Assembly (NCBI GenBank): GCA_043811375.1
Contig: JBDRNJ010000027.1
Location: 1-64,000, forward strand
Reading direction: 5' to 3'
Source of the DNA: a bacterium
Lineage (GTDB): Bacteria; Zixibacteria; MSB-5A5; GN15; FEB-12
DNA length: 64,000 bases
A program made the translations under genes and the position numbers. A model generated the notes under the pieces. That model did not search any database. It worked only from the letters and a program-made list of their open reading frames with translations, and was not told where the DNA came from. Of this stretch, positions 8,204-40,078 are shown piece by piece (the first letter of the stretch is position 1; each line of letters starts with the position of its first letter).

Positions 8204-8995
8204 TTATACAGCTTCAAGGGCGTTTAAGATCGCGGCTGAAGTGGACTGTATGCGTTGGAGAGATTCAGCAAGCGTATCCTTGTCGCCATTGTAAAGCTGG
8301 ATGTAATCGCTGCAGGCAGTACCGGCATCAAACCCTATGGCATGGCAGACAACAAACGCTACTGCTTCAGCTTCGGTTTCTCTAACTGTCTTTGAGGCTC
8401 GCTCGCCTTCGCAGCGGTGAAGCAACTCGTGAGCTAGTTCATGCACCCGAACCTCAAAATCGTGAGCGGGTGGAAGATCTGTACGGATAGTTATCTTTCC
8501 TCCACTGGAGCACCCCTCGACTGTGAGTTCACTTGAATACTCGAGGGAGATTCCGCAGCTTGCGATGAAGGTATTCAGACGGTCATGGAATTCACCGGGA
8601 TTGCCGGCTACGTATTCCGGTTGAGGAAGAGGTTCGCCGTCGGTCTGGCTGACATCAAAAATGTGAACCGCTCGATAGCCGAGGACTTCGTACCCCTCGC
8701 ATTCAGGTTCAAGATCCTCGTCTTTTCTTCGGTTGGTGATAGGAGCGAGAATCATGATACCCTTCTCACCCTTTCTCACGAAGCGATCAAACTTGCGCCA
8801 AGTGTGAAAGCCTGCAACCTGGGTTGCATCTGGTCGTTGCATGGCAATGAGCATCAGGTTTCCAAAGCTGTACCGGTGAAACCGGCTCATGGCAGATAGG
8901 TAGGCTCGCAGCGTGTCGCTTTTCCCTGCTTCGAGCGCAGCAACTAACGACGTGAGGGCCTTGTCGGTGAGTTCTCTTGCTTTGTCCTTTTTCAT
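8204..8995 (-). CDS. ardC: ArdC-like antirestriction protein (ssDNA-binding domain + zincin)
   Basis: FHRYSFGN...VAGFHTW...RFVRKGEKGI N-domain, HELAH motif, ETEAEAVAF. Confidence 0.85.
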   Translation of the reverse strand: MKKDKARELTDKALTSLVAALEAGKSDTLRAYLSAMSRFHRYSFGNLMLIAMQRPDATQVAGFHTWRKFDRFVRKGEKGIMILAPITNRRKDEDLEPECEGYEVLGYRAVHIFDVSQTDGEPLPQPEYVAGNPGEFHDRLNTFIASCGISLEYSSELTVEGCSSGGKITIRTDLPPAHDFEVRVHELAHELLHRCEGERASKTVRETEAEAVAFVVCHAIGFDAGTACSDYIQLYNGDKDTLAESLQRIQSTSAAILNALEAV

Positions 8996-9429: not shown

Positions 9430-10812
9430 TTACTCTTCGACTCTCAGAAAGCATCCGGTGAGTGTGACTCCCTCCTTGACAAGTGATCGTGCGAGTGATA
9501 AGAGGTCGTAGGTATCGTTTTCATAGCCGGCGTCAAGGATGGTATTGCCGCGCAGGTGTCGGATTACGAACATGGTCGAGAGCATGTTGCGTAGGTCGGT
9601 GTCAGCCAGAATGGGGAAATTGCGGTGGGTGTGTCCGTAGCCTGTGTCTACCTTTATGAAGCGATTACACTTGAAATGCTGGGTCATCTCTGCTTCGTGC
9701 TTCTCGTACTGGGTCGTCGCAAGCTTGGCCAGTTTCTCGAGGAGTTTGTCTTTGGTGCCGGTCATACTGACGTTGTGGTTGCGGAGCACTGTCTTTATCC
9801 GGTCGCCCGTGTCTCTGGAATTGAGGTAGCCGCCGATGGCGTAGCTTTCGATTCTAGCTTTGTAGACGGTTGCGCTTGAAGCACCTGGTTCTTGTTTATG
9901 TGTGTAGTTGACCCCGGGGAAGCCGATGCAAAACAGGCCGGTTTGGAGCATCCGGCATAGCTTTGTCATGTTCGTGGTGAAGCAATACCTCCCTTGGTTT
10001 ATCCGCCACTTGTCCGCTAATGACTGGGCGGCGTAACGTACCGCCGGGTCGTGGTTTAGGTTGGGAATCAGTCTTATTTGACAGCCCTTCCTTCTGCCGT
10101 TGTAGGATAACTGCTGGTGTCCGTAGTCAGGCGTTCGTTCATTCGCCAACAGCACGAAGTCGTTAATACTGTCTGCCAACTTGAGCAACCCCCTGTCGTC
10201 GGTGACTCTGTCAAGGAACGCAGTGGTTCTGAAGTTCGTGACAGGTAAAGCCTGTCTGATGACGAGTTCGTCTTCGCTGTCGAAGTCCCTCGGGCTGAGA
10301 ACGTCGGCCAGGTCGTGGTGGTCCAGGTCGTCGTAGCTTGACAGCTTTACACTCTGTCGCTTTGACTTGATGAATGTCCTCAGATCATTGAAGTTCACGT
10401 ATACTTGCAGGGCCAGCTCCTTTGCGAGAGTGTGGTTCCATTTACGGCGCAGTTGTTGCCTGGCCAGCTTCAGTAGTCTTTGATAGGTGGTAGTCTCGAC
10501 AAAGCGAAGTATTTGGCTGACCCGCCGCAGGAACTCAGTGAACTGGTCATATTCTGTGTAGCAGTAGTCGCGGTGACAGGAGCCTATGTCATGACAGTGC
10601 TTAAGTTCAGCGAGTTGTTTGATCTTGAATTGGTCAGAGTTGAGCAGTTGGACGAACCTTTCGGTCAGGGTGCGGTTGGCGCGGTTGTCGCTGTGCGGGT
10701 GTATGCCCTTCTCAATGACATCTTGCACGTCCACGTCAACGATTTCCCCGGCCAGTTGCTTGAATTCCGGGATGTCCCTGTCATCCTTGAACCATAGCCT
10801 GAACGTCTCCAT
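9430..10812 (-). CDS. Hypothetical protein with SAP-like DNA-binding motif
   Basis: 460 aa, coupled to the MoxR gene. IKTVLRNHNVSMTGTKDKLLEKL resembles a SAP motif. Confidence 0.7.
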   Translation of the reverse strand: METFRLWFKDDRDIPEFKQLAGEIVDVDVQDVIEKGIHPHSDNRANRTLTERFVQLLNSDQFKIKQLAELKHCHDIGSCHRDYCYTEYDQFTEFLRRVSQILRFVETTTYQRLLKLARQQLRRKWNHTLAKELALQVYVNFNDLRTFIKSKRQSVKLSSYDDLDHHDLADVLSPRDFDSEDELVIRQALPVTNFRTTAFLDRVTDDRGLLKLADSINDFVLLANERTPDYGHQQLSYNGRRKGCQIRLIPNLNHDPAVRYAAQSLADKWRINQGRYCFTTNMTKLCRMLQTGLFCIGFPGVNYTHKQEPGASSATVYKARIESYAIGGYLNSRDTGDRIKTVLRNHNVSMTGTKDKLLEKLAKLATTQYEKHEAEMTQHFKCNRFIKVDTGYGHTHRNFPILADTDLRNMLSTMFVIRHLRGNTILDAGYENDTYDLLSLARSLVKEGVTLTGCFLRVEE

Positions 10813-10813
10813 C

Positions 10814-12298
10814 TTAGCTAACCTCCTCTTTCCCCTGTCTGGCTTGGTTGATCAGGTCGTGGAAGATCGCGATGTCGGCTTCTATGGCCGCCTCGGTCTT
10901 GGCAATGGTTGCGGGAGTGACGTTGCCTTTGTCTACCAGATGCCAGACTCGGTTGTAGGCGACCAGCCGTCCCAGGTCGGTCTCCTGGCTGAGCAGGTCT
11001 TCTACCTCTTCTATGTACTCTACTGATTCGTTCTGCAGGGCTGGTATCGACTCGGTGGTCAACTCGGCGGAGATGATCTTCTGCCCAAGCCCTTCCAACA
11101 GTTCCTGGGGAACAGTGCCGGGTCGGTGAGCTTCAACCTGCAAGGCGGTGTAGGCCAACAAGGTAATGTCGTTGTCCTCTTTCATCAGGTCGTTCCAGGC
11201 TTTACTGTTGACGAAGTCGCCCAGGTCTGCCTTGAGGAGAATGTTCGCTTTACGCATCAGGTTGTCAGTGGTGAACAACTCGTAGATCAGATCGACCTTG
11301 GATACCTCAGAGTTTTCACCAAAGTATGCGGACAACAGGTCGAAACAGATTTCCATCTTGTGAACGGTTTCTTCCCGTTTGAGTGACTCATCGTTCAACC
11401 CGATCGGAATGGATGACTGTACAACGTACCGGGCTGACTCTGCGAATCCTGCTGGTAGCGTTTTGAGCAATTCTGCTTTGGCTAGTTGGATAGAGCGGTT
11501 GGCCAGGATGTTGCGGTAGATGAAGCCCAAGCGGCGACCGTCCAGGCTGACTTCTCCTTGGGTTTCCCTCATCAACAGGTCAGCGAACTTGGCTAAGAAT
11601 TCCGATAGCGTTGGCAGTTGGCTCCTGAGTCGGCTAAAATGCTTGGCTGCTGTTTTCAGGATACGGTTGAGAAGTTGGCCGACCTGGCCAGTGTCGCGTT
11701 CGGTTACCGTTTCCAGATTGGGGTCTTCGCTCCATACGGATATCGACGGTGCGTCGTCGCCGTTAATGTGCGTGGTTACCTTGATGCGGTCTTCTTCATT
11801 CATTTGGAGTACGTCCGGTGGATACAAGAAGGTTGCGAACCGTCCAATCAGGGCTTCATCCAGGGCCTGGGTGGCTGAATAGGACAGCGGATTCATGGCT
11901 GCCCACACCCACTTGACGTTGGTGTCAAAGCCCATAATCTTGCGGGAGCGGATGATCTCCAACCACTTGGACTGGAGTTCCGGCATGGCGCGATTGAGTT
12001 CGTCGATTAAGATTAGCTCCTTGTCCCACACCGTGACCTTGCTTGGGACGTACTCGACAACGCCCTGTTTCAGTTTTTCGATGTTAGGAAACCCCAATAC
12101 GTCTTCGAACATCGCTTTGGACGCATCGTAGACCAAAAAGGGGCGACTGAGCGCTCTCGCGATCGTGTTAGCCAGGTGGGTTTTGGCACAGCCGTGATTA
12201 CCGACCAGAAGCAACGGATCTCCGGTCAACAATGAAGCCAGAACGAGGTCTTCATCCTCTTGCTTCCATCCGAAGATTCCGAGTTTTTCGAGTAACAT
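10814..12298 (-). CDS. MoxR-family AAA+ ATPase with C-terminal helical extension
   Basis: GNHGCAKT Walker A, ILIDELNR Walker B, AAMNP, LDEALIGRF. Confidence 0.92.
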   Translation of the reverse strand: MLLEKLGIFGWKQEDEDLVLASLLTGDPLLLVGNHGCAKTHLANTIARALSRPFLVYDASKAMFEDVLGFPNIEKLKQGVVEYVPSKVTVWDKELILIDELNRAMPELQSKWLEIIRSRKIMGFDTNVKWVWAAMNPLSYSATQALDEALIGRFATFLYPPDVLQMNEEDRIKVTTHINGDDAPSISVWSEDPNLETVTERDTGQVGQLLNRILKTAAKHFSRLRSQLPTLSEFLAKFADLLMRETQGEVSLDGRRLGFIYRNILANRSIQLAKAELLKTLPAGFAESARYVVQSSIPIGLNDESLKREETVHKMEICFDLLSAYFGENSEVSKVDLIYELFTTDNLMRKANILLKADLGDFVNSKAWNDLMKEDNDITLLAYTALQVEAHRPGTVPQELLEGLGQKIISAELTTESIPALQNESVEYIEEVEDLLSQETDLGRLVAYNRVWHLVDKGNVTPATIAKTEAAIEADIAIFHDLINQARQGKEEVS

Positions 12299-12413
12299 CG
12301 TTGTTATCTCCTTCTATCTTTTTGTTTTGTTATGGGGCAAATGAATAGAGGGAGCCGCCAGGGCAGCTCCCTCGTGGTTGAGGTGAATTGATTGGCTGAG
12401 AAGGTTCCTGATT

Positions 12414-13700
12414 TTACTGGCAGACGTCTTCCAGCCGGACGACGTCGCCAAACTCTTCAAAATCAGAACAGCGGTGGGCTTTGTCGAACAGAATCGCCAG
12501 CGTGACCGTTTTCTGTTCGTGGAGTCTGGCCTTGTTGGATTCTAACATTGATGCGTAGCCGTCAGTTATGATGACCGCCTTGTCAAATTGGTGGTCGATG
12601 ATCGATTCCGCGACACAGTCGAAGTCAGTACCGTACGTGGTGGTGATCTTTCCCTTCAGCAACTGTTGGAATGGGACTTCGACGACTTTGTTGCTGAACA
12701 GGAAGACGCTGGTGATTTCGCGCTTGAGGTGGCTGAGGATGCCCAGGATTTTAGGCAGGTACTGCTCGACTGATCCTGAAACGTCCAGGTAGGCAGCTAG
12801 GCCCTTGTCTTTTTTCGCGGGAGTGGTGATCTGGTTGTGGAAAAAGCTGGGATAAAACCCGGTGGCCAGGAGTACCAGGTCGCGCTTTGATGGATACAAG
12901 GGAACAGGCGAGGCGCAGACCCGGCGCCGTTTGAATAACTCCGTGAATCTGTCCAGCTTCCGGTTGGTGGTGAATCTTTGCAGAATGGCCCGTTTGATAG
13001 CCAGGTGCGTGCGCAGGGCCTCCATAAGCATGCTGACGAGATTGGCATGGTAGCCGGCCATCTGGCCCCCTCGGTCGGCGGCGGAGCGCTTGATGTCGTC
13101 GGCGATCTTTTGCAGGGTCTCGCTTGGCCACCTCTCATGTGACGCGCTTCCAGTTCCATGCGATCCCAAAAACAGGACGCACGTGGCCGCGTTTGCTTCC
13201 AGAAGAATCTTCAACGTGGTGATAAGTTCGCCGGTTGTTATGCCGGGCCTGGTGGCGCCATTGCCATAGAGCTCATGGTAGGCATCTTCGAAGCGGGTGC
13301 TGTACAGTACGCTCAGAGGACGGAGAAGCCCCTCAACTCCTCTCTGTGAATAGAGCTTCTTAAACAAGTGGCCATGGCCGGATTCCTCGCGGTAGAGGTT
13401 GCTCACGACGGCGTTGATGACAGCGTCGGTAGCGAGACTCTCCAGCGGGCCGTTGTCGTAGATGAAGTGGTTGAACATCGGATGCAAGAGCTCGTGGAAC
13501 ACGAGGCAGAACAGGTCCTCCTTGCAGGTAATATTCCTGGCTACGAATTGTCGGTTGTAGCCGAGCCGGCCATCCTTGGTGATGCCGGCTGTCACCATGG
13601 TGTGATCCTCCTCCACCGAGCTGATAAAGCCGGCCGTGAAGGAGTTAAATCCCAATGCATCTCTTAGTGTTTGACGCACTATTTCCAGTGTGATCTTCAT
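12414..13700 (-). CDS. Metallopeptidase-vWA protein (DUF2201-like)
   Basis: N-terminal HELLH zincin; C-terminal MIDAS YLDVSGS...GTDF...IITDG. RBS GGAGGTG before the ATG at 13700. Confidence 0.88.
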   Translation of the reverse strand: MKITLEIVRQTLRDALGFNSFTAGFISSVEEDHTMVTAGITKDGRLGYNRQFVARNITCKEDLFCLVFHELLHPMFNHFIYDNGPLESLATDAVINAVVSNLYREESGHGHLFKKLYSQRGVEGLLRPLSVLYSTRFEDAYHELYGNGATRPGITTGELITTLKILLEANAATCVLFLGSHGTGSASHERWPSETLQKIADDIKRSAADRGGQMAGYHANLVSMLMEALRTHLAIKRAILQRFTTNRKLDRFTELFKRRRVCASPVPLYPSKRDLVLLATGFYPSFFHNQITTPAKKDKGLAAYLDVSGSVEQYLPKILGILSHLKREITSVFLFSNKVVEVPFQQLLKGKITTTYGTDFDCVAESIIDHQFDKAVIITDGYASMLESNKARLHEQKTVTLAILFDKAHRCSDFEEFGDVVRLEDVCQ

Positions 13701-14451
13701 GGATACACCTCCTTCAGTTAATGAGTGATAAAGAGAAATGCCCGATGGTGCATCGAGGCCTGCCATCGGGCGTTTAAGGTTGCTGTTTATTCAATTCAAA
13801 GAATAATGGCGGGGATAAAACGGTGCTTAGGATGACTAGATTCAGGAATGGAACCGGCTCAAGAAACCGTGGCAGTCTCAGAAATAATCCTTGATATTAT
13901 GAGGGGTATATTATAGGTTTAGATTGTTGATTTAGCTCCTTAGGTGAACAGGCCATCTATCAAAAGGTTCTTTTCTGCAATTCGTCGGAACACCTTGTCT
14001 AGTGTTCCCGTGTTTCTTGCCGGAGGGGTCAGAATGATCGCTGAGAGAAATGATTGAGCTTGGTGTCAAATGGAGGTGAGGGCTTGTCATGCTAGCGGCC
14101 TGACGTCTGACTGATTTCGCTACCGGGCGCTTTCGACTTTGGGAGCACAATGAATTGTAGATTGGATGATGGTAAGAATGCGGACATTGGCACTATTTCT
14201 CGTCATCCCGTCGCCCACTTCCCTCGATGTCGGGCTCCGTGAACGAAAGAAAACCCAGAGCCTTTCTGATTTCCTAACTGTGGGTGCGTGGATTCAACCG
14301 ACAGGTTTCGAGCGTCCTTGGCAAGTGCCAGTTTGTTGGTATCGAATACTCTCTTCGTCTGGGCAATTTCGTGTTTCGGCTATGGGTGGAGTGCGGTGGT
14401 TGCGCTGGCCTTAGGCGTAATCCCAACAATCAATTAGGTAGGAGGTAATTC

Positions 14452-15702: not shown

Positions 15703-15933
15703 GGTCTCAGTGCGCAGATACCATCTTTCATGTCAAGGTTTTGATATCCGGATTAGAGCGTTTTTGTGTGATTAGAATGGCTCTGGCTATTAAAAGCAGT
15801 TTCTTCATAGCTGCGACAACTTAGCATGGGCTTCTTGTCAGTGACTCCATGATTCTGCATCTGCCGAATTTCTCACGACATCGTGTGAATGAAAAAAGCA
15901 GCTTGACAAGGGCTATTTGGGAACTAGCTTAAA

Positions 15934-18457: not shown

Positions 18458-19222
18458 CTACCTTGTCCGACCAGTGTGGGAATGTGCAACATCGGACAAG
18501 CCCAGCATTACTTTTTGTGTCAGGAGTTTCTTGGCAAACCGGGCATCCCCTCCAGACTGTTCAGCTATCTCCTGAAGCTGTTTGGCGGTCGGCTTGGTCT
18601 TGTGATCAGATTTCTCCAGATCATGCTTTAAGAGCTGGATGATTTCTTTCGTCGTATAAGGATTGAAGTTGACGAAGATCGGACTCAGGCGGGACCAGAC
18701 TCTCGGCTCGATCCCGAGTTTCTGTGGTGTCTCATTGGAGATGGCTACAATCCAGAAGTTCCCCATCTCATGGAACTGGTACAACACTGCGTTGCGTTCT
18801 TTTGTGTCCAATCGGTCAATCCCGTCAATGATATAGATGCACTGCTTCTTGTCCATGTGCTTCTTTATGCGTTCGATCTTAAACCGCGTATCCTGAAGCT
18901 CTGCCCTAAGAATGGAAAACTGGTCAACAATGTCGTTTACGAGGGCATATAGGGAGTTTGAGTTCCAACAGTTGCTGCATGCGACAGAGGCCTGTCTGGT
19001 CTCAGCAAGCTCTGACGCGGCATACTGGGCGCAATGGGTTTTGCCGGCTCCCTGGGATCCCCAGATCCAGGTATGCAATGGTGTAGGATGTTTGCCTACA
19101 TGTGAAAGTATCCGTTGGAGTGCAGTAAGCTCCCTCTGGCGTCCGACTGGTCGCTGGGGTTTTGGAATAGGCTTTTGCCATGAGGGTTCTCTAAGCTGCT
19201 CTTCAAGCTGTCTGTAGGCCAT
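18458..19222 (-). CDS. Orc1/Cdc6-like AAA+ ATPase lacking the winged-helix domain
   Basis: PVGRQRELTAL, WIWGSQGAGKT, SNCW, IIDGID, LYQF, AISN, RVWSRL, FNPYT.KEI, GGDARFA: the Cdc6/Orc1 motif order. Confidence 0.85.
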   Translation of the reverse strand: MAYRQLEEQLREPSWQKPIPKPQRPVGRQRELTALQRILSHVGKHPTPLHTWIWGSQGAGKTHCAQYAASELAETRQASVACSNCWNSNSLYALVNDIVDQFSILRAELQDTRFKIERIKKHMDKKQCIYIIDGIDRLDTKERNAVLYQFHEMGNFWIVAISNETPQKLGIEPRVWSRLSPIFVNFNPYTTKEIIQLLKHDLEKSDHKTKPTAKQLQEIAEQSGGDARFAKKLLTQKVMLGLSDVAHSHTGRTR

Positions 19223-19286
19223 ATGGATGATTATCGAACTAAGCTTTATAAGCCTCTCGCGCGCATGGGAGTGCTGTATTGCGGTT

Positions 19287-21332
19287 TTATTGCTGGGCTA
19301 ACCGGCTGGCGGATGTTAAGATGATTTTGCCGCGTTCCTTGTCTGGCAGTTGGAGAATTGCTCTGGCTATCCTTGCCTCCGCCGCCTTGGTCGTGGCCGC
19401 GATTATTCCGAGGTCGAACGGTGACATCTGCAGTTTTTTGACGGTCCTGTCAACATCACCTTTTCCGGTCTCAATTTCGACGACCCTTTTTGTCGATCCC
19501 TTCTGAATCACGATATCATATTGGTTGCCCGCATGCCGTACTTCCGTTGCCACGGTCCATCCCTGTTCCCGAAGCCGTGCTGCAATCCGGGCCTTCCAGT
19601 ATTCGTGGTCAAGACCGCCTTCCAGTGGCGATTGGGGAGCTTGTTGCCTTCCCAGAACCGGATATCCAGCGGGAGTAAGTTGCAGTAGGGCCACCCTACC
19701 CTTTGACGTTGAGACTTCAGTCTGGGTGATAAGTCCTGCTTGTCGCAGGATTTCCTTGGTCTTGTCTCCCATATAGGCAGATAGACTCAGCTGTCGATAT
19801 CGTTCAACGACGCTTAAGTTCGGATAGTCAGCTATACTTTCTAAAAAGCTCATCTGTGTCTCAGTCAGTTGAGTCGGCGGTGAGGATTCAGGGTCATTCT
19901 GTGAAGATTCGGCCCCTTCTACTTGCCTCTGGCGAAGAACCCGAATAGCTTCTTTCAGCATTTGCTGGCCATTATCAAACACTGTGGCAACCGAATAACT
20001 CCACATGAGGCCGCTGAGTGCTTTATCACTGATTCTGACGGCATTTCGTGATGATTCCGGCACCTGCGCAAGGAAAGCCTGGGGAACCCCGCTCAGCTTT
20101 ACTATAGCTTCACCGGGATGCAATAACTTGAGGTATTCACGGTCCTCCCCGTGAAGCCCAATGCTGTCGCAGATTGATCTGATATCTGCCTCGTTGTGCA
20201 TGTTGAAGACGAAATGGGTGTTAAGATTCGCCAGGGCACTGTTGGTCAGGCTGGAGGGCTGTTGATCGATGATGACAAAGCCCTCGCCTAGTTCTCTCAC
20301 CTGTCTAAGTATGCCATCCATAAGAGATTCCCTGTCTTCCAGGGCTTGCTTCTGCCGTGTCAGGATGTTATGAGCTTCCTCGATGAGGAAGACATGTTCC
20401 AGTGGCTTTCGGTGACCTTGGTTCAGCCTGGCGAAGTAGGTCCAGAGGCAGAGAGCTTCGGTGAAGAACGTTTTCTCGCTGTCGGTCAGACTTTCCAAAC
20501 CATACACGACCGGGACGTTTAACAATGGTCCGATTGAGAATGGAGTATTGAAGACTCGGCTGATACCACCGAACGAAAGCGCACCCAGAGCTCTTTTGGC
20601 GCTGTCAATCCACATAGCTTCACGGCCGTAGGCTTTCTTTTTTTCTATATGTGTGAGCGCCTCCTGGAAAGTAGGATACGCACACTGCGAATCCTCTCCT
20701 GCGTCGCCTGCGAGGTCGAAAAACGTCTGCTGCAGAATCCGCTCCACCCCATGTCCGAGAAACAAAGCGTGTTTCATGGCTTCGATGAGAAGCTTCAGCC
20801 AGTCCTCCCAATCCGTGTTTGGAGGTGGCAGCAGCGGGTTCCAGTAAAACGGTGATACTTGACTCCCGACAGTGAAATACAGCACAAGCGGGTCTGTTCG
20901 AGTCTTCAAGAGCGACCGGAAATTCTGCTTCCAGTCAAAAAGTGTGAACGGAATCCTGTTTTCAAGCAACTGGTCGACCAGGATGTGGACCAGATTGGTC
21001 TTGCCCGAGCCGGTCGTGCCCCAAATGCCCATATGCCTGGTCAGTTGCTTCTGCGTGATCTGAACCGACCCATAGGGAGAATCGCGATACTTGATTGTTC
21101 CCAGTGTGAGTTCTCCGGTAGGTGTCTCAGAAGGAGGCCGCAGAATAACATCAGGTTCGGCCAAATCCGGTCGGCAGTACCTCTGATAAAGCAGGTCGAT
21201 TACACCGCCGGCCTGGAGACGGTCTTTGACAGAGCTTCCCTGGTGGAATGCAGCCATTAGGCCATTGACCTGGCTGCCCAAAAGCGGTTCCAGTTTATCG
21301 AGTTTCTTGAGGTATACCTTTTCATCGGTCAT
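19287..21332 (-). CDS. HerA/VirD4-like (DUF87) ATPase fused to wHTH and PD-(D/E)XK nuclease
   Basis: RHMGIWGTTGSGKT, FDWK, LIEEAH, RELG, DQQPS; C-terminal LSVVERYRQLSLS...LTPAG wHTH, LDHEYW, YDIV...VEIETGK. Confidence 0.88.
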   Translation of the reverse strand: MTDEKVYLKKLDKLEPLLGSQVNGLMAAFHQGSSVKDRLQAGGVIDLLYQRYCRPDLAEPDVILRPPSETPTGELTLGTIKYRDSPYGSVQITQKQLTRHMGIWGTTGSGKTNLVHILVDQLLENRIPFTLFDWKQNFRSLLKTRTDPLVLYFTVGSQVSPFYWNPLLPPPNTDWEDWLKLLIEAMKHALFLGHGVERILQQTFFDLAGDAGEDSQCAYPTFQEALTHIEKKKAYGREAMWIDSAKRALGALSFGGISRVFNTPFSIGPLLNVPVVYGLESLTDSEKTFFTEALCLWTYFARLNQGHRKPLEHVFLIEEAHNILTRQKQALEDRESLMDGILRQVRELGEGFVIIDQQPSSLTNSALANLNTHFVFNMHNEADIRSICDSIGLHGEDREYLKLLHPGEAIVKLSGVPQAFLAQVPESSRNAVRISDKALSGLMWSYSVATVFDNGQQMLKEAIRVLRQRQVEGAESSQNDPESSPPTQLTETQMSFLESIADYPNLSVVERYRQLSLSAYMGDKTKEILRQAGLITQTEVSTSKGRVALLQLTPAGYPVLGRQQAPQSPLEGGLDHEYWKARIAARLREQGWTVATEVRHAGNQYDIVIQKGSTKRVVEIETGKGDVDRTVKKLQMSPFDLGIIAATTKAAEARIARAILQLPDKERGKIILTSASRLAQQ

Positions 21333-21423
21333 AGACAATTCCTGCTGCGCTGAACTGGTTACACAGACATACATCCGTAAGTGAGTGTGGCTGACGTGAT
21401 ATGCCTGATCGTAACTAACAATC

Positions 21424-21852
21424 TCACTTGAGACTTCTGCTGTTCTTTTTGGAGGAATTATTCTTTGCCTGCTGTTCCGCTCCCCTGACGGCTTCGAAAA
21501 GATCTCTGATGTCCCTGATGTCCCTCCTCAGGGTTTGAACATCCCTCCAGAAGTTGACTTTTTGTTCTCTGGTTTCTTTGCGAATACGGCACAGCCGCTC
21601 TTCCAACTCTAAGCGGCGCTTCTCGATGATTGGATCCACTCCAAGGGTCCATTTTGTCAGGTCATCTAGTGTGATTATGGTAGCCCGACCTTCCTCGCGT
21701 AGCGAGTCGACGCATTCTTTTTCGATACGATGCCGTTCCTTTACCTCTTTCAAGAGTTCGTCCATCTTGGTTCTTATTCTGGCTGCCACCAGGTTCTTGA
21801 TTTCAGGTTCTGGGCTCCTTTGATTGGAGTTTTTTCGGGGCATAGGAATCAC
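21424..21852 (-). CDS. Coiled-coil hypothetical protein
   Basis: Charged heptad-rich 142-aa ORF upstream of the ATPase; a degenerate paralogue lies at 22746-22967. Confidence 0.7.
   Translation of the reverse strand: MIPMPRKNSNQRSPEPEIKNLVAARIRTKMDELLKEVKERHRIEKECVDSLREEGRATIITLDDLTKWTLGVDPIIEKRRLELEERLCRIRKETREQKVNFWRDVQTLRRDIRDIRDLFEAVRGAEQQAKNNSSKKNSRSLK
21713..21852. repeat. Direct repeat copy 1 (~140 bp)
   Basis: Aligns ungapped, with scattered substitutions, to 22828-22967. Confidence 0.9.
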
Positions 21853-22288
21853 TGAGGTTGTTGGGGTGAATTGGTGGCAGAGTTTATATTGACTGCGGGC
21901 GAGAGCAATGTCAAAGTACGTGATTAAAGATTTGTCAGCAACATGGCGTCTGAGAATTGACGGGATTCAAGGCTTGCCAAGATGTTTTTCTCGGACGTGA
22001 GTCCGCCGGTAGTAGACACAGCTCTCCATCTGCTAATACTCCTCACATTTTCGTGGGACTAAGCTTGACGGCTTAGGATGTTATTGTATTATTGTATCTG
22101 CTCCCTTTCTGGCTCGTCCTTTGGTTCATCTCTTGGCTCATTCTATCTTGCGATTATGAATTATGTCTCTAAGCTGGTCACGCGGGCATTTGTTTGAAAA
22201 GTGCTGATATCAAGTGGCAGGCCTAATAGGTTGAGTTTATAAATACTAGTTTCACCAATTATAATACAGCTATGATTATTATAGCGGG

Positions 22289-22745: not shown

Positions 22746-22967
22746 TTAGACAAATCTGGTTATGGGAATTTTATTCAGGTCTTGCGACAGTCTTGGAGCA
22801 TGCTTTTCATCATGCAGAAATTTCAGGCATCCTTTTTCGATACGGTGCCGTTCCCTTACCTCTTTCAAGAGCTCATCCATCTTGGTTCTTGTTCTGGCCG
22901 CGACCAAGTTCTTGATCTCGGGTCCGCGACTAGTCTGGTGGGAGTTCTGTCGAGGCATTGACATCAC
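22746..22967 (-). pseudogene. Truncated paralogue of the coiled-coil gene (repeat copy 2)
   Basis: PEIKNLVAAR.RTKMDELLKEV.ERHRIEK is shared with 21424-21852; the sequence then diverges. Confidence 0.8.
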
Positions 22968-26608: not shown

Positions 26609-26645
26609 TCGTTTCGAAGCTGAAGCGCAGATGGGCGCCGGAGCC
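26609..26645. repeat. 37-bp direct repeat copy 1
   Basis: TCGTTTCGAAGCTGAAGCGCAGATGGGCGCCGGAGCC; two mismatches to 27491-27527. Confidence 0.9.
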
Positions 26646-27490: not shown

Positions 27491-27527
27491 TCGCTTCGAA
27501 GCTGAAACGCAGATGGGCGCCGGAGCC
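27491..27527. repeat. 37-bp direct repeat copy 2
   Basis: TCGCTTCGAAGCTGAAACGCAGATGGGCGCCGGAGCC. Confidence 0.9.
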
Positions 27528-30540: not shown

Positions 30541-30622
30541 GCTTGAGACCTTCAGGGTCGGCCATCCACACATGAGTCTCAATTGGTGTAGTTGACGGGA
30601 AAGGAAGTAAAGCAGTAAGGAA

Positions 30623-32081: not shown

Positions 32082-32301
32082 GAATTGCAATGGATGAAAG
32101 CCTTTATAAAGTTTTTCCCCTATGTGTACCTAGTCCATCAGGACTCAGTCATCACCCCGTAAGCGTTTCGTCAGGTTGACCTTATTACTTGAAGGCAGGT
32201 CGCGAGGCCTGCGTGAAGCTCGTGACCTCTTGAACGGAGAAGATGAAATGATCACGAGAGAACTTCGCAAGCAATGTCTTGAATGTAAGGAGGACACCAT
32301 C

Positions 32302-32887: not shown

Positions 32888-33757
32888 ATGAATAGGCTTC
32901 AGATTCGGAGAATGAGGAACAGGCTGGATCAGCTTCACGATCCTCGCCGTCTGAGGGCAGAGCTGCTTCGCTGTCGGAAGATTGCCTGGTTGGACAGGTC
33001 CAAGCTTCGTGGTGAGGAAATCAATGTAGTCAGGCAGTTCCGGAAGCAATACGGGCGATGGTTCGGGGACGAGGGGATGCCAAGGTTTCCTTCCGACGAA
33101 TGGAGCGCAAAGCTGAAAGGAAAGTCAATGAAGATTGGTGGCTGGGTTGGTCTTGCGCTTGAGAGTGGTATAGCAGCGCTTGTCTCTCCCGGCGTTCTAG
33201 CAATGCCACCTGTAAGGGCGGCCGTGGTCGGAGTAGGTGTCACCTTGGCGTTCGCAATCATGGTTAAAAAGGGGCTCTTGGCCGTGGGCTATGATGAGGA
33301 TGACCCGATCCGAAGCCGGAACAGGCTAGCATGGCTCGGTTCGATCGTCTTGGGGATCAGCCTTTTGATGCTTGTCCCCTTCTTCCTGGGCAGAGCGAGC
33401 GCTGAAGTTGGGAGCCTGGCAGGCTGGGCGCTGGGCATCCTCGGCGTCTCACTCCCTGTTACCGCCGCAGGCTTGCTGGCAGCCGGTGAGCTGACGTCTT
33501 GGCCCCAGCAGCTAACTAGGCAATTCAGGTCAATCCGCGCCAGGAGAGCGCGGGTAGAGGCCTTTCTGCTTGAAGTGAACATCAAACTGGAGGATTTGAA
33601 ATGCAGAGCAAAGCACTCACACTGGCGGCCGCGCAGGGGATATTGGCAACGCTCTTCATCGCGTCATGCATGGAGCAAGAACCAATTCGGCAACAACGGG
33701 AACAGGAAGCGAGCTTCGAACGGTTCCAGGTTTTCGTCGATACGTCGGGCAGTCTAG
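32888..33757 (+). CDS. Four-TM membrane protein
   Basis: RBS AGGAGG; four hydrophobic helices. The Arg-rich tail overlaps the next gene. Confidence 0.7.
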   Translation: MNRLQIRRMRNRLDQLHDPRRLRAELLRCRKIAWLDRSKLRGEEINVVRQFRKQYGRWFGDEGMPRFPSDEWSAKLKGKSMKIGGWVGLALESGIAALVSPGVLAMPPVRAAVVGVGVTLAFAIMVKKGLLAVGYDEDDPIRSRNRLAWLGSIVLGISLLMLVPFFLGRASAEVGSLAGWALGILGVSLPVTAAGLLAAGELTSWPQQLTRQFRSIRARRARVEAFLLEVNIKLEDLKCRAKHSHWRPRRGYWQRSSSRHAWSKNQFGNNGNRKRASNGSRFSSIRRAV

Positions 33758-34467
33758 ATGAGCAGGAATACCGCACCGTGATAAACTCCGTTTGCGCCTC
33801 GCTGGATACGTTGGTGGAATTATTCAGCACTCGGTATCTATCGGTGATACCGTTTTCGGCGGGGCCGGATCTTTGGAGCGGTTCGCACGTGACGGCAGTC
33901 CTGCCGGAACCACCTCTGGTAGAGGTGAGAGCTGACGTTCAAAACGAAGCTGCGCTTCTGTTCAAGAAGTACCAAGCCAAGCTCCAAAAGGAGGCTGATA
34001 AGGAACAGAAGCAAGCGCGGCTTGCTGCTCGAGGTGCTTATATGAGTGCCGTCGGGGACTCAATTGCGCCTGTCTTGATGTTCCTCTCTGGCCTCCTTCA
34101 GGGCGACGCCGAGTGCACCTCGTTGAACGACCTCGCGGTGCGTTGCGGTTCTGACGGGAGCAACACCTTATCACTTGTCATCACCGACGGCGTGGACGAT
34201 TGCGGTGCATTGTCGCGCGAATCAGTGGAGAAGCCTGAGGGCAATTCAGTAACGGTGGTTTTCCTGGTGCCTACGAAACGTGATAGGCAAAAGCACGGGG
34301 AGTACGGTGAGCTACTGAAGGCACGGAGTGAAGCCCTGAAGGTGCTTCTTCCATCGGCGATAATCCTTCCCGGATACATGAGTTCCCGCCTCGATTCATG
34401 GCTGAGCGAGATAGTGCAGAAGAGAAAGGGCACGGTTGGCTCGGATTGGGAGGACCTTGATGGCTAA
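33601..34467 (+). CDS. vWA-domain lipoprotein
   Basis: Lipobox FIASC; MIDAS VFVDTSGS...CTSL...VITDG. Confidence 0.8.
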   Translation: MQSKALTLAAAQGILATLFIASCMEQEPIRQQREQEASFERFQVFVDTSGSLDEQEYRTVINSVCASLDTLVELFSTRYLSVIPFSAGPDLWSGSHVTAVLPEPPLVEVRADVQNEAALLFKKYQAKLQKEADKEQKQARLAARGAYMSAVGDSIAPVLMFLSGLLQGDAECTSLNDLAVRCGSDGSNTLSLVITDGVDDCGALSRESVEKPEGNSVTVVFLVPTKRDRQKHGEYGELLKARSEALKVLLPSAIILPGYMSSRLDSWLSEIVQKRKGTVGSDWEDLDG

Positions 34468-34720
34468 GCATTCATCCGGCAACCAGTTGGATCTGTTTGA
34501 CAGCTTGAATAGCGAGGTTGCGAGGTCTGCGGACCTGGACGCTGAGGAGATATCTCGGCAAGAGAGGCATCAGCCCGGGGATGGGCAAACAGTATCAACG
34601 ACGGAAGCCACGATAAAGGAGGATGTGTGCGCGTGTCATCAGTGCGGAAAGCACCGTGCTGGCGCAGACGATGAAGTGGAAGAGCTTGTCACAGCACTTT
34701 ATGGCCCAGGAAATACGTGA
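34460..34720 (+). CDS. Small acidic protein with QLDLF motif and CxCxxC
   Basis: RBS GGAGG; MAKHSSGNQLDLFDS...CACHQC. Confidence 0.55.
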   Translation: MAKHSSGNQLDLFDSLNSEVARSADLDAEEISRQERHQPGDGQTVSTTEATIKEDVCACHQCGKHRAGADDEVEELVTALYGPGNT

Positions 34721-34778
34721 GAGTGTTGAGTTGAACTCTCCAGTTAGGCGAGAACGGAAGATAGATGGAGGAACTGAC

Positions 34779-35168
34779 ATGGATAAAAAGAGCAAACCGG
34801 ATGACGACGCCCTTGAACTGAAACGGGACGTTAGCAGGGAGCGGATAGGCCGTGACGTTGCTGAGACCGGACAGGTCAAGCAGGTGGTGAAGCGGGAGTT
34901 TGAGTTCGACGGCGTGCTTGGCAGCGAGACAATAATCGAATACGCTCAGCTTTACTGCGGTCACTTGTCGCCGGCTAGTGCTGGTGGCCTCTGTGTCTGC
35001 GGGCGAAGTTACTGTCGGGCGTGCCTGGAGTCTGCAGGAGCCAATTGCAGCGTTTGCGGCAGGCTGATCGGACCCTGCTGCGTTTCTCGATCGTGCCTGG
35101 ATCAGGACCGCGTGTACTGCAAGCAGTGTCGGTTTTTTGGCTGGTTAGCTTGGCTATTTGGAGGATGA
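34779..35168 (+). CDS. Cys-rich double zinc-finger protein
   Basis: RBS GGAGG; CGH...CVCGRSYCRAC...CSVC...CC...CKQC. Confidence 0.75.
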   Translation: MDKKSKPDDDALELKRDVSRERIGRDVAETGQVKQVVKREFEFDGVLGSETIIEYAQLYCGHLSPASAGGLCVCGRSYCRACLESAGANCSVCGRLIGPCCVSRSCLDQDRVYCKQCRFFGWLAWLFGG

Positions 35169-35395
35169 TTACAATGGCTTGGATCTTACTTTTGCTCGGG
35201 CTCTTTTTCGTGTTCACCAGGATACTGCCCTCCCGAAATGGGGCAGTTGTTACAGGGTTCCTCATGCCCGTAGTGTTTATCCTGTACTTGGCTACTGTCT
35301 CTCCCAACCTCGCGCGATTCGTTGCGATTATCATCGGCCCAATTCTCCTCGTGGCTTTTCTGAGGTTGAGGTCCAAAGGCCGGCGTGGGAAGTGA
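35165..35395 (+). CDS. Small three-TM membrane protein
   Basis: ATGA overlap with the previous gene; hydrophobic with a basic tail. Confidence 0.7.
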   Translation: MITMAWILLLLGLFFVFTRILPSRNGAVVTGFLMPVVFILYLATVSPNLARFVAIIIGPILLVAFLRLRSKGRRGK

Positions 35396-36716
35396 CAGTA
35401 TAGGGTCCAAACTCATGTGGCGCGAACAGAGACAATTGCAGAGGTTGGTCAACCTGCTCGGAACATCTGAGCCTCGCGTGTCACGCCTGGAAAGGCTGGC
35501 GGCGCTGCATCCGGAGAAAGTCCCACAAGTCTTGAGGTCGCTGAGTCTCTTGGCAATCAGGCGAGGCCTTGACCCGACCAACATGCCTGCGTTTCCGGTC
35601 TGCCGGAATGCCTTGCCGGCTGATGGCGTGCACCTCGGAGAGCAGATGTTCGGCGAGCAACCCGTGGGCGAACTGCGGCTCGGTATTGAAGACATGCTTG
35701 GGTCACACGTTCTTGTCGCAGGGGTCACAGGCTGGGGTAAGACCTACCTGCTTATGTATATTCTCCAGCAGCTAGTCAAAATGGCATATCGCGTATGCGT
35801 CTTTGATAGCGAGTCCGAATACTGGAAGTTTGCGGAAAGAGCTGGGCTGGATCAATGCTGGTTTGTCCATCTCGAAGACGACAAGGACAACCCGCTCCAG
35901 CAACCGCCCAATGTCCCGGTAGGCAAGTGGTTCGCCGCCTGGAAACGCAGCGTGCGCGAGGTCATGTGGTGCCGGGAAGGCATGATCAATCTGCTCACCC
36001 TATGCATTGGCAACCTACTGAAGAATACAAAAGGACAGAAGCCAGAAAGGTCCCCCACCATCTCCAATCTTTACTCCCTGTTGAACAACATGAGGTTCCA
36101 GCCTGGAACCAGACGCGCTGGTTATCACGAATCGCTCTTAGACAGGGTGCAGTCGCTCCTGGACAACCTTGGCCCGATGGTGGATTGTGAGTCAGGATAT
36201 CCACTGGAAGACCTTGCACGGAAAAGCCTCGTCTATGACATTTCATCACTCAGCCAGGAAGCGCAGTTATTCGTCCTGCACCTTAAGCTCCTGAAGATGC
36301 AGCTCTATCGTGAGGCCCAACTGGAAGAGGCTGGGAAAGAGGCTGCTGCTACAGGCTCCGACGTTTTCGTTGTGGAGGAAGCTCACCGAGCAACGGCCAA
36401 GGTACTGGAGAAAAGGCCTGACCTCGGAGAGCCGCTGCTTTACGACTTGGTGAGGACGGGAAGAAAGCGCGGCGCCAAGTTCGTATTCGTCGAACAAGTG
36501 ATAGCCGGAATCCCATACCAGATTCTTGGCAACATCAACTGCAGGATCATAGGGAGAATCTCTGACGGCCGCTCTTTGATCGCACTCGCGCAGATAACGG
36601 GGTGGGACGACGATCAGCTGGATTTCATTCGGGAACTCCCGCCCAGACATTTTGTCATCCAGACGCCGCTAATACCTGATGGGGCCGTGTTCAAGGTACC
36701 GGATTTGAGTGAATGA
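35385..36716 (+). CDS. HerA/VirD4-like (DUF87) ATPase
   Basis: HVLVAGVTGWGKT, VFDSESEY, VVEEAH, GRKRG, FVEQ. Confidence 0.88.
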   Translation: MGSDSIGSKLMWREQRQLQRLVNLLGTSEPRVSRLERLAALHPEKVPQVLRSLSLLAIRRGLDPTNMPAFPVCRNALPADGVHLGEQMFGEQPVGELRLGIEDMLGSHVLVAGVTGWGKTYLLMYILQQLVKMAYRVCVFDSESEYWKFAERAGLDQCWFVHLEDDKDNPLQQPPNVPVGKWFAAWKRSVREVMWCREGMINLLTLCIGNLLKNTKGQKPERSPTISNLYSLLNNMRFQPGTRRAGYHESLLDRVQSLLDNLGPMVDCESGYPLEDLARKSLVYDISSLSQEAQLFVLHLKLLKMQLYREAQLEEAGKEAAATGSDVFVVEEAHRATAKVLEKRPDLGEPLLYDLVRTGRKRGAKFVFVEQVIAGIPYQILGNINCRIIGRISDGRSLIALAQITGWDDDQLDFIRELPPRHFVIQTPLIPDGAVFKVPDLSE

Positions 36717-37462
36717 GTATGGATAAACAGGAATTGAGAAAACGCATGCGCGAAATCCTGGCGGAACTGGATTGGAGGGGTGCTGGAAAGGGCGGAAGTG
36801 AGGAACCAGAGACCCTGGAGGTTGCCGGAACCTCGGGAGGAGCAAATCGCTGGGTGACTGTCCGGGATGCGCATAAGAAGGTCTTGGCCAGCGTGGCGAA
36901 AAATCCCTTCTACTCGATCACTGAGCACACAGAGGCAATCGGGAACATAAGCGCCTGGGTTATGGCCAGAGTGATTGAAGAACTGACAAAGATAGGCTTT
37001 CTGGGAGAACCTCTGCCACTCTCGCTTGGCAAACGCGGAAGCCCGAGGCGGTATCTCAAGATCACACCCAGAGGTGCAAAGCATATCGGTGTAAAATTCG
37101 AAGACTGCCGGATACCTGGCAAGGGGTCTTTCGAACACTGTCTATACCAAGACATCGTTTACCGCTTTCTTAGAGCCAAAGGCCGGGCTGTCCTGATTGA
37201 GCAGACATATAACGGCAAGGCAGTGGATGTAGTGGAGCACCTTGACGACGGCAAGGTCAGGGCATACGAGATCGAACTTAGAGCTATCGGGCATGTCGCT
37301 GACAATATACGTGGTGATCTAGACGCTGGGTGCATGGCGGTCATAGTGGTGACGCGGAACCGATCCGAAGAGAAGCGGATTTCCTTGGCAGTCTATGGCA
37401 GGCTTTCCGCCGAGATGCTGGAGCACGTCAGCTTCCGGACGATTGGAGAGTTTGTTCAATGA
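36713..37462 (+). CDS. wHTH + PD-(D/E)XK nuclease-fold protein
   Basis: SITEH...LKITPRG wHTH; GSFEHCLY; AVDVV...AYEIEL. ATGA overlap with the ATPase gene. Confidence 0.8.
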   Translation: MSMDKQELRKRMREILAELDWRGAGKGGSEEPETLEVAGTSGGANRWVTVRDAHKKVLASVAKNPFYSITEHTEAIGNISAWVMARVIEELTKIGFLGEPLPLSLGKRGSPRRYLKITPRGAKHIGVKFEDCRIPGKGSFEHCLYQDIVYRFLRAKGRAVLIEQTYNGKAVDVVEHLDDGKVRAYEIELRAIGHVADNIRGDLDAGCMAVIVVTRNRSEEKRISLAVYGRLSAEMLEHVSFRTIGEFVQ

Positions 37463-38568: not shown

Positions 38569-38802
38569 GTGCCACGTGACCTGTTGACGCCCCAGCAGCT
38601 TGCTGATGTGCTCGGTGTGAAACTTTCCACCATCTATTACTGGAGCCACACGAGGTATATCCCAACAGTCAAAATGGGAAGGCTATTACGGTTTAGACGC
38701 AGTTCAATCGAGCGATGGCTTGAAAAGCGAGAGAAGCCTCCAGTCAACAGGAAACAGTTGGCCAGCTCGGCAATGAAATCGAACTCAGCAACATTGAAGT
38801 AA
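38569..38802 (+). CDS. xis: Excisionase-like HTH_17 protein
   Basis: LLTPQQLADVLGVKLSTIYYW...IPTVKMGRLLRFRRSSIERWL. Confidence 0.9.
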   Translation: MPRDLLTPQQLADVLGVKLSTIYYWSHTRYIPTVKMGRLLRFRRSSIERWLEKREKPPVNRKQLASSAMKSNSATLK

Positions 38803-38847: not shown

Positions 38848-39897
38848 CTAGTCAGATTCACTCAAGTAATTCAAGTTTTCTACTGCTCTCCTATGAGCGT
38901 CCTGAGTTGTGTGAACATAGGTCATTGTCATGCGTATGTCTGAGTGTCCCAGAAGCTCCTTGACCACAGGCAGTGGCACACCTGAGTCAACTAAGAAGCT
39001 GCCGAATGTGTGTCGAAGAGAGTGAACAGATGTTAGATTGGCAATTCCTGCACGTCTCGCAATCAGGATTAGTCGCTTTCTGATTTCACCGTGAAATGTT
39101 GGTCTACCTTCAAGGGTGAAAACGTACGGGTGCTCGTCGCCACGATTGACGCAAAGGGACCGTAGGACGTGCTTCAACTCGGGACTCATGGCAATATCTC
39201 TTTCACCTGTTTTCGGTTTCCAATCATCTTTGTGGCGAATATAGATGACTTCTTTCTCAAAATCGACATCTTGCCAGGTCAGGTGCTCCAATTCACCGCG
39301 ACGCATACCCGAGTGCAAGAATCCCAAGATCACTGACCTCATATCTGGGGGGCTCGCGTCCAGAAGGACTGACACTTCGTCCTTTGTCAGGATACGATGA
39401 GGCTTAGCGTCCATCACTCGTTGGAACCTAATGCCATCAGTCGGGTTCTTCTCGGCCAAATCCCACTTGATAGCATAATTGAAAATCGTCCTCAGAGTTT
39501 TGATTTCAAAATTCATACTCTTCGTCATTGGAGGTTGCGTGCCCGCGAGCCGAGATTGGCGGTACCTCTCTATGACTCCAAGATTGACTTGCGAACAGAG
39601 CCTTATTCTCGGTTCGGTAACGAGGAATTCTTGAAACCGGTCTATCACATTCTGATAACGCTGGCTGGAAGCACATGCCATGTTCATCTTGGCGAAACTG
39701 GCAAATTGGACGAACACGTCTGAGATTAGAGAATCGTTTCGGTCAAGGCCATACTCCCCACGCACAAGGCGTCCCTCGATGTCGGCTAGGACTTCAAGGG
39801 CCAGCCTCTTACTGGGTCCCACGATCTTGCGAACCCGAATGCCTTTTCGGCAGACGTCGATCTGATAATTCTTCCCTATCTTCCGCAAGGAACCCAT
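38848..39897 (-). CDS. int: Phage/ICE-type tyrosine integrase
   Basis: Arm-binding N-terminus, SGMRRGEL, KPKT, HSLRHTF, LLGHSDIRMTMTY; adjacent to the tRNA-Asp 3' end. Confidence 0.95.
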   Translation of the reverse strand: MGSLRKIGKNYQIDVCRKGIRVRKIVGPSKRLALEVLADIEGRLVRGEYGLDRNDSLISDVFVQFASFAKMNMACASSQRYQNVIDRFQEFLVTEPRIRLCSQVNLGVIERYRQSRLAGTQPPMTKSMNFEIKTLRTIFNYAIKWDLAEKNPTDGIRFQRVMDAKPHRILTKDEVSVLLDASPPDMRSVILGFLHSGMRRGELEHLTWQDVDFEKEVIYIRHKDDWKPKTGERDIAMSPELKHVLRSLCVNRGDEHPYVFTLEGRPTFHGEIRKRLILIARRAGIANLTSVHSLRHTFGSFLVDSGVPLPVVKELLGHSDIRMTMTYVHTTQDAHRRAVENLNYLSESD

Positions 39898-39972: not shown

Positions 39973-40004
39973 TGGTAATTAAAGGGATAAAGTCAAAACA
40001 AATG

Positions 40005-40078
40005 CGGGGTTGACGAGACTCGAACTCGCGGCCTCCTGCGTGACAGGCAGGCGTTCTAACCAACTGAACTACAACCCC
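40005..40078 (-). tRNA. tRNA-Asp(GTC)
   Basis: GGGGTTGTAGTTCAGTTGGTTAGAACGCCTGCCTGTCACGCAGGAGGCCGCGAGTTCGAGTCTCGTCAACCCCG; CCA not encoded. Confidence 0.97.

Follow-up and report, generated by a model that had tools for sequence, protein, structure and literature searches.

MOBC relaxases (the Replic_Relax family, PF13814), such as TraX of pAD1 and MobC of CloDF13, carry a winged helix and, after it, a DEE-type PD-(D/E)XK domain that an invariant histidine precedes. For TraX, the available text of two reports describes the winged helix, the DEE motif and an essential tyrosine, Y181, with no covalent intermediate seen (PMC12857230, PMC6736028). Pairs of VirD4 and PF13814 genes define one class of streptococcal integrative and mobilizable elements (PMC5357655), and an N-terminal membrane anchor is present in most, though not all, type IV coupling proteins (PMC7431656). 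Elements can also be moved without a type IV secretion system (T4SS), as described for Streptomyces TraB, which has a C-terminal helix-turn-helix (HTH), and for Thermus TdtA, which requires adjacent nucleases and belongs to the tRNA-integrated element ICETh1 (PMC5365140). Here, we analysed a stretch of 64,000 nucleotides from a Zixibacteria genome (assembly GCA_043811375.1, contig JBDRNJ010000027.1, positions 1 to 64,000; hereafter the window), in which a single gene at 19287..21374 on the minus strand encodes a fusion of an FtsK/HerA-type ATPase, a winged helix and a nuclease fold, and lies on an integrated mobile element. An earlier note on this gene had taken its product for a possible single-chain coupling protein and relaxase, a minimal DNA transfer or processing machine in one polypeptide. 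Judged by sequence, the module around the fusion is widespread, unnamed and carried on integrative elements, a variant of FtsK/HerA-nuclease machinery with a predicted function.

The fusion open reading frame (ORF) encodes 695 residues; its likely start is Met15 at 21332, which leaves 681 residues and agrees with the public gene call (P0002, 681 aa). Residues 76-442 (20049..21149) form the ATPase domain, with Walker A at 119-126, Walker B at 332-333, R357/R360 and Q371; the N-terminal 75 residues were described from the alignment only. The DUF87 match (E = 4e-11) is above the Pfam cut-off, matches to HerA_C and TrwB_AAD_bind are weaker, and the top profile match of the ATPase in the Protein Data Bank (PDB) is archaeal HerA (4d2i, E = 3e-20). 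Relatives of similar length numbered 441 at E ≤ 0.001, and the 120 relatives among the matches listed mostly cover at least 85% of the fusion query, with 29-77% identity. The Walker A lysine K125, D147, E332/E333, H335, R357 and Q371 are invariant in all 110 aligned relatives. DUF87 was found in all 66 family members scanned; TrwB_AAD_bind weakly matches 52 of these, with DUF87 scoring better (best E 2e-17 vs 6e-7). The P-loop core, both Walker motifs (A and B) and the conserved arginine and glutamine place the domain in the FtsK/HerA superfamily (DUF87).

The DUF87 motor core and its motifs are shared with the archaeal repair system HerA-NurA, from which the fusion differs in its fused C-terminal domains and in two further respects: a HAS barrel was matched in none of the 66 members, and no nurA, mre11 or rad50 gene was found among the annotated recurrent neighbour families or the window neighbours. 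The HerA equivalog models score the fusion at 30-47, against cut-offs of 800-970, and its best NCBIfam match, CedD (E = 4e-23), scores 82 against a cut-off of 600. A VirD4/TrwB-type membrane anchor is lacking as well, since none of 74 proteins of clade A (the ATPase clade of the fusion, described below) has a membrane helix in its first 100 residues; the maximum 19-residue hydropathy of the fusion is 1.08.

The C-terminal part was examined in an AlphaFold model of residues 496-695 (pLDDT 94, pTM 0.88). The model shows a MarR-type winged helix (residues ~501-575, 19650..19874; Z 11.9, rmsd 3.5 over 79 residues), followed at residues ~583-690 (19305..19628) by a core of alpha-beta-beta-beta-alpha-beta order, for which the restriction-fold protein AF1548 is a match (1y88; Z 10.0, rmsd 3.0 over 100 residues). 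In a Foldseek search with the C-terminal model, Can2 was the top match and Can2/EcoT38I were matched. The acidic residues lie on strands 2 and 3 of the model, as in the PD-(D/E)XK superfamily, and the usual lysine position is occupied by glutamate, as in DEE-type enzymes, so that the domain is a predicted nuclease of this fold with H590, E611, D620, E633, E635 and K647 as its motif residues. The LDHEYW motif and D620..E633xE635 are present in the fusion sequence, and 103 of 110 aligned rows retain the full set of H590, E611, D620, E/Q633 and E635, 4 rows being gapped there. A profile of the C-terminus retrieved 2451 clusters at E ≤ 1e-10, and both the domain architecture and its conservation are far beyond chance. 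Divergence is faster in the winged helix and nuclease (55-56% identity to the closest relative) than in the motor (90%).

The layout of the MOBC relaxases, a winged helix and then a DEE-type PD-(D/E)XK domain with the histidine ahead of it, is thus found in the fusion, and the nearest named fold of its C-terminus by predicted structure is Replic_Relax (TM 0.55, 151 residues). Two VirD4/TraG-type proteins, 761 and 1008 aa long, are further Atlas matches to the C-terminus (TM 0.56 and 0.58). A set of 39 collected Replic_Relax proteins was used for comparison, and the motif order H..D..ExD/E-x-G..K is common to this set and the fusion family. In hhalign, the winged helix alone aligned to the set locally (probability 76) and the whole C-terminal domain globally (probability 62); the nuclease domain alone was not aligned (P = 0.11). 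The kinship with PF13814 on which the earlier note drew did not appear at profile level, with none of the 66 members matching at E ≤ 0.01, and PF13814 was absent among the 25 families listed of 47 for 54 C-termini. PF13814 also gave no match in the fusion's own genome, though the controls of that search were blank too. A tyrosine four residues after the motif lysine (K+4), which probably corresponds to Y181 of TraX, is present in 33 of 39 Replic_Relax proteins vs 33 of 110 fusion relatives, many of them from one close-kin group; it is absent from the other 77 and from the fusion itself. Because fold and motif order are shared and yet the sequence link is weak, we consider the C-terminal domain a plausible sister of MOBC/Replic_Relax rather than a demonstrated member.

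The domains and motifs that the earlier note read from the sequence (DUF87 ATPase, winged HTH, the histidine of LDHEYW and D...ExE) were therefore confirmed by Pfam, the alignment and the AlphaFold model. The PD-(D/E)XK fold on which its proposal hinged is seen in the model, and the ATPase falls, as expected there, outside canonical repair HerA. The label of coupling protein and relaxase holds in part: Replic_Relax is the nearest fold and the context is mobile, but the fusion is not a demonstrated member of either family, lacks a membrane anchor and has no T4SS genes found nearby. As a separate observation, in Chloroflexota proteins of 550-890 aa (loci L139, L140, L142, L143, L148, L151 and L153), Replic_Relax follows a long N-terminal region that is not an ATPase.

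Directly upstream of the fusion, on the same strand, lies a gene for a 142-aa protein (21424..21852) that was modelled as a two-helix coiled-coil hairpin (pLDDT 93; helices 15-66 and 74-139). A scan of species genomes confirmed 171 loci; locus counts given here refer to the best 80 of these, of which 40 are long. A same-strand gene of 120-200 aa lies directly upstream of the fusion relative in 67 of the 80 loci; of the remainder, 4 have no room for a partner gene and one more has a weak match. The partner gene has no Pfam, PADLOC or NCBIfam match, and its Atlas matches are below the naming threshold. Fold comparison gave no specific identity for the partner, the matches being generic, with Z 9.5-11.2 to many unrelated coiled coils; PspA of the ESCRT-III/PspA family (Z 10.2, rmsd 3.1, 120 residues) falls within this range. 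A partial second copy of the gene (22746..22967, minus strand) is 78% identical over 162 nt. In the same genome, at C4:166448-168537, a second coiled-coil partner gene is found with the start of a clade A ATPase, which the contig end truncates; an integrase-like gene lies upstream of them and a small winged-HTH gene nearby. In loci L016, L061, L071, L075 and L079, a gene for a PDDEXK_1 nuclease lies between the coiled-coil gene and the ATPase, and several proteins of this lineage have the K+4 tyrosine, as judged by eye.

The window contains a second ATPase module. Its ATPase (35385..36716, plus strand, 443 aa) is 21% identical to that of the fusion, and the winged helix and nuclease fold are encoded by a separate, overlapping gene (36713..37462, plus strand) that matches the C-terminal profile (E = 2e-17) and keeps H, E, D, ExE and N. 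The two genes are preceded on the same strand by a gene for a Cys-rich zinc-finger protein (34623..35168), which aligns with genes upstream of other such ATPases, and by one for a small protein of ~76 aa with 2-3 membrane helices predicted from hydropathy only (35165..35395), whose Met start overlaps the zinc-finger stop. A membrane protein and a lipoprotein-like gene (32888..34467, plus strand) lie upstream of the module and may belong with it. In a midpoint-rooted tree of 137 ATPase domains (280-480 residues, Walker A required), all partner-bearing sequences belong to a single clade (A; support 0.955) that has the fusion near its base, and the second copies (B) fall outside clade A and do not form one clade. 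An NYN-domain gene (32176-32859) precedes the clade B operon and is also found in L169, and an M48-peptidase-like gene with its neighbour (28408-31471) recurs in the G616 element.

Second modules were tallied by hand in 40 genomes chosen for longer contigs, in which kin are not independent; ATPases of ~930-1050 aa were left out of the count. A second module was found on the same contig in 25 of the 40 and within 55 kb in 24, against a chance expectation of ~1.6 in 40 for two copies placed at random, and on contigs of at least 100 kb it was found within 70 kb in 15 of 18. The tree includes 21 of the 25 second modules, every one of them outside clade A, and leaves L002, L009, L014 and L041 unplaced. 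By crude filters that admit false positives, an upstream Cys-rich gene accompanies 28 of 32 clade B vs 6 of 49 clade A ATPases, and a small hydrophobic gene 27 of 32 vs 11 of 49; by eye, ~20 zinc-finger genes are genuine homologues. Besides the full fusion of the three domains, the family includes forms divided after the ATPase or after the winged helix, and forms in which each domain has a gene of its own. Where clade A has no nuclease, 9 of 10 genomes checked retain a winged-helix-nuclease match, at least 6 of them on the same contig. The idea of a minimal machine in one polypeptide is thus not sustained, given the partner gene, the second module and the lineages in which domains are split or lost. 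The coiled-coil gene, the Cdc6 gene downstream of the fusion and the split paralogue (35385-37462) had not figured in the earlier note.

In the window, the clade B module is followed by genes for an excisionase-like HTH_17 protein (38569..38802, plus strand) and a tyrosine integrase (38848..39897, minus strand) and then by a tRNA-Asp gene (40001..40078, minus strand), whose 28-bp 3' end recurs twice on contig C32 and is the likely attachment site. The C32 copies fit this tRNA-Asp by 2-3 more bases than a second tRNA-Asp on contig C28, which has a recombinase-like gene of its own beside it (C28:1499-3124); in view of this margin and this recombinase, their link to the tRNA-Asp of the window is no more than suggestive. 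The two copies are in tandem, 16 kb apart (C32:1499-17877), and several elements target tRNA-Asp in this genome. The element in the window is cut by the contig end, so that its left end is off the contig. No VirB4 or VirD4 was found among 18 scanned of the 19 other Walker-A ORFs in the flanks. Likewise, T4SS families were absent from 58 selected proteins (at least 230 aa) of four long-contig elements, a scan that short or divergent genes fall outside; these proteins include integrases, ThiF and defence-like cargo, and many have no match at all.

Downstream of the fusion lies a gene for an Orc1/Cdc6-type AAA+ protein of 254 aa (18458..19222, minus strand; TIGR02928, E = 3e-24, profile positions 14-249 of 366). 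It ends before the C-terminal winged helix that relatives of 347-438 aa carry, and no continuation was seen in other frames. All 10 relatives tested match TIGR02928 in one stretch, colinear with archaeal Orc1/Cdc6 and with no extra length, and 7 of them are full-length and above the cut-off. Among neighbours, the 80 loci include Orc1/Cdc6 in 26, a tyrosine integrase in 23, RadC, MoxR and ThiF in 10 each, ArdC in 9 and canonical Replic_Relax in 4. Cdc6 is present in 19 of the 40 long loci, at a strand and distance to the fusion that vary, and at least one of Cdc6, integrase, ArdC, RadC and Replic_Relax in 35 of them.

The best 80 loci are distributed over many bacterial phyla, including, by record titles, Zixiibacteria, Planctomycetota, Chloroflexota, Desulfobacterota, Acidobacteriota and Bacillota, and over the archaeal groups Nanoarchaeia, Bathyarchaeia, Methanomassiliicoccales, Thermococci and Promethearchaeota. 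Within the host phylum, Zixiibacteriota, the family is patchy: the C-terminal profile matches 43 of 251 genomes at E ≤ 0.001 and 27 of 251 at E ≤ 1e-8. One carrier is cultured, Desulfosarcina cetonica JCM 12296 (L078), with its second module on another record. A viral origin was rejected, the matches being one weak partial one in IMG/VR and two to the ATPase only, at 23% identity, among 50,697 phage records.

Compared with MOBC relaxases and their VirD4-type partners, the family likewise places an FtsK/HerA-superfamily ATPase on integrative elements, but this ATPase is of the DUF87 type and unanchored, its C-terminus lacks profile-level membership in PF13814, and the system also has a coiled-coil partner and a further ATPase module; its domains may be fused or split, and the nuclease may be missing. 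ATPases of the FtsK/HerA type act as ring-shaped motors on DNA. The PDB entry TdpA, which we take to be a TdtA-family protein, weakly matches the fusion (profile E = 3e-5). As described in PMC5365140, TdtA and TraB resemble the present system in combining an FtsK/HerA ATPase with a nuclease or a C-terminal HTH and in integration at tRNA 3' ends; the nuclease of TdtA, however, is NurA-like or a restriction enzyme encoded by separate genes, and it has a single ATPase where two are found here. Their function was shown experimentally, whereas that of the present family is deduced from its genes. The crenarchaeal Ced system (CedB with CedD, and CedA1; PMC11868833) also has two HerA/VirB4-like ATPases and small two-helix membrane proteins, but it is chromosomal and imports DNA, and the available text gives CedD a membrane domain and describes no fused nuclease; we regard the likeness as an analogy. 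The literature searched, outside which lay most subscription papers and supplements (notably that of PMC10853773), held no account of an ATPase-winged-HTH-nuclease family with a coiled-coil partner.

We tentatively hypothesize that the module is a cut-and-pump mobilization motor, analogous to TraB and TdtA, of an unnamed family of integrative elements without a T4SS of their own. From what is known of the family, the fusion would form a hexameric ring; the winged helix would pick a site on the element DNA, the nuclease domain would open the DNA there, and the motor would pump the element DNA out of the cell, translocation and cleavage being activities familiar from the family and transfer a conjecture. 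The coiled-coil partner would probably act with the fusion, and the clade B module with its small membrane proteins may sit at the membrane as a channel, the A and B motors perhaps cooperating. We favour this reading because of the MOBC TraX-like layout with Replic_Relax as nearest fold, the mobile context (integrase, Cdc6, ArdC, RadC) with its broad yet patchy spread, the linkage of the second module far above chance together with the nuclease match kept in nuclease-less clade A genomes, and the precedent of T4SS-free transfer in this ATPase superfamily. A more elaborate form appears doubtful as a whole, namely a two-motor, T4SS-free DNA export machine of widespread unnamed integrative elements that crosses phyla and the divide between bacteria and archaea, in which A would work with the coiled-coil hairpin, B with the zinc-finger and small membrane proteins, at least one MOBC-sister winged-helix nuclease would cut and Orc1/Cdc6 would serve replication.

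Several findings count against mobilization. The proposed transfer function is a prediction from sequence and models. The candidate catalytic K+4 tyrosine is Ser651 in the fusion, the tree shows at least two losses of the nuclease within clade A, and canonical Replic_Relax genes occur separately in 4 of 80 loci (3 full-length, 1 fragment). No full-length relative was found in 72,556 plasmids, where a transfer module might be expected; the plasmid matches cover the ATPase only, with 24-31% identity to proteins of ~1000 aa in a separate tree group, and the C-terminus has no match there. An origin of transfer or shared upstream DNA was not seen beyond close kin in 68 loci. A linked second module is missing from 15 of 40 genomes, 3 of these on contigs of at least 100 kb, the small hydrophobic proteins do not form a single sequence family, and a membrane part is absent from clade A itself. 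Finally, the fast C-terminal divergence is what element-specific recognition would predict, but an arms race in defence fits it as well.

That last point leads to the possibility that the module is anti-phage or anti-plasmid HerA-nuclease cargo, in which the motor would follow invading DNA for the nuclease to destroy and the coiled-coil protein would sense or regulate. We consider this unlikely, although other HerA/DUF87 structures, of which we take several to be defence ATPases, come next after archaeal HerA among the best PDB profile matches, and the islands hold defence-like cargo (Abi_C, methylase, SIR2-like, NACHT). The PADLOC matches of the fusion, mad8 (E = 3e-17) and HerA (E = 4e-13), are weak, partial and confined to the ATPase region, the defence model NF042943 scores it at 32 against a cut-off of 800, and neither the partner nor the separate nuclease gene has a PADLOC match; both the equivalog score and the cognate effector gene of catalogued anti-phage HerA systems are lacking. 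The clade B module, moreover, often sits like a core gene just upstream of excisionase and integrase genes. Mobile neighbourhoods of Orc/CDC6, HerA/FtsK, restriction endonuclease (REase) and winged HTH, termed 'HerA/FtsK capture', were called probable defence by Rakesh et al. 2024 (PMC10853773); they have the domain composition of the present loci, and this is the nearest account in print. The Cdc6 of that account, however, invariably has an inactive REase inserted between AAA+ and winged HTH, whereas the 10 tested here are plain Orc1/Cdc6-like proteins without it, and coiled-coil and zinc-finger or membrane partners are not described in the main-text section compared. A maintenance module that replicates, resolves or segregates the excised circle with an Orc1/Cdc6 initiator, primases and integrases would account for the frequent and mostly full-length Cdc6 and for the PriCT-1 primase-type gene that follows clade B in L001; the annotation of Replic_Relax, in addition, covers both relaxation and replication (PMC3424549), and a Bacillus phage carries Replic_Relax alongside ParM and Xer genes (PMC10454425). 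The maintenance reading appears slightly less likely than defence, as the strand and distance of Cdc6 vary, the window copy is truncated while the fusion is intact, and the clade B membrane genes, ArdC and the spread across domains of life would be left unexplained.

More improbable still is a fusion of a true MOBC relaxase and a VirD4-type coupling protein, one that would use a T4SS supplied in trans. The Replic_Relax-like fold and motif order, the streptococcal VirD4-PF13814 pairs (PMC5357655) and the weak TrwB_AAD_bind matches are in keeping with it, but DUF87 outscores the TrwB model, PF13814 is matched by no member, hhalign aligns only the winged helix locally and not the nuclease alone, clade A proteins have no N-terminal membrane helix, the tyrosine is absent from the fusion and many members have no nuclease. 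A chromosomal HerA of double-strand-break repair, for which the 4d2i match would speak, is very improbable and largely refuted by the missing HAS barrel, the low equivalog scores, the neighbourhoods without nurA, mre11 or rad50, and the patchy, mobile distribution.

The fusion family offers a testable candidate for the mobility machinery of integrative elements, many genomic islands being without a recognised transfer route, and its signature genes, for which there is no named model, can serve as markers for finding such elements. The family may, in addition, reveal the relation of MOBC-type relaxases to restriction-fold nucleases; if defence is its role instead, it would be an uncatalogued HerA-nuclease system. 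Tests are feasible because one host, D. cetonica JCM 12296, is a cultured strain.

Other recurrent neighbours in the window, both on the minus strand, are a gene for an ArdC N-terminal-domain protein (8204..8995) and a three-gene block of vWA, MoxR AAA and an unknown protein (9430..13766). An operon of ThiS-like, unknown, JAB and ThiF genes recurs in L014, L022, L025, L034, L036, L037, L041, L042 and L053, and several host-phylum loci have a related JAB-ThiF block behind clade B. The assembly break probably stems from insertion-sequence transposase and integrase fragments found where the contig begins (1-1843). Two copies of a 37-nt repeat, 95% identical, at 26609-26645 and 27491-27527 and a related 19-nt inverted copy at 15769-15787 flank cargo genes and are possibly cassette recombination sites. 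A TATA-like TTATAAA motif ~30 nt before the Cdc6 start (19223-19260, minus strand), with no obvious ribosome-binding site, resembles an archaeal leaderless promoter. Similar motifs were seen before the ORF at 22289 (22236-22246) and, for 5 of 68 loci, upstream of the module, a count made without a chance control.

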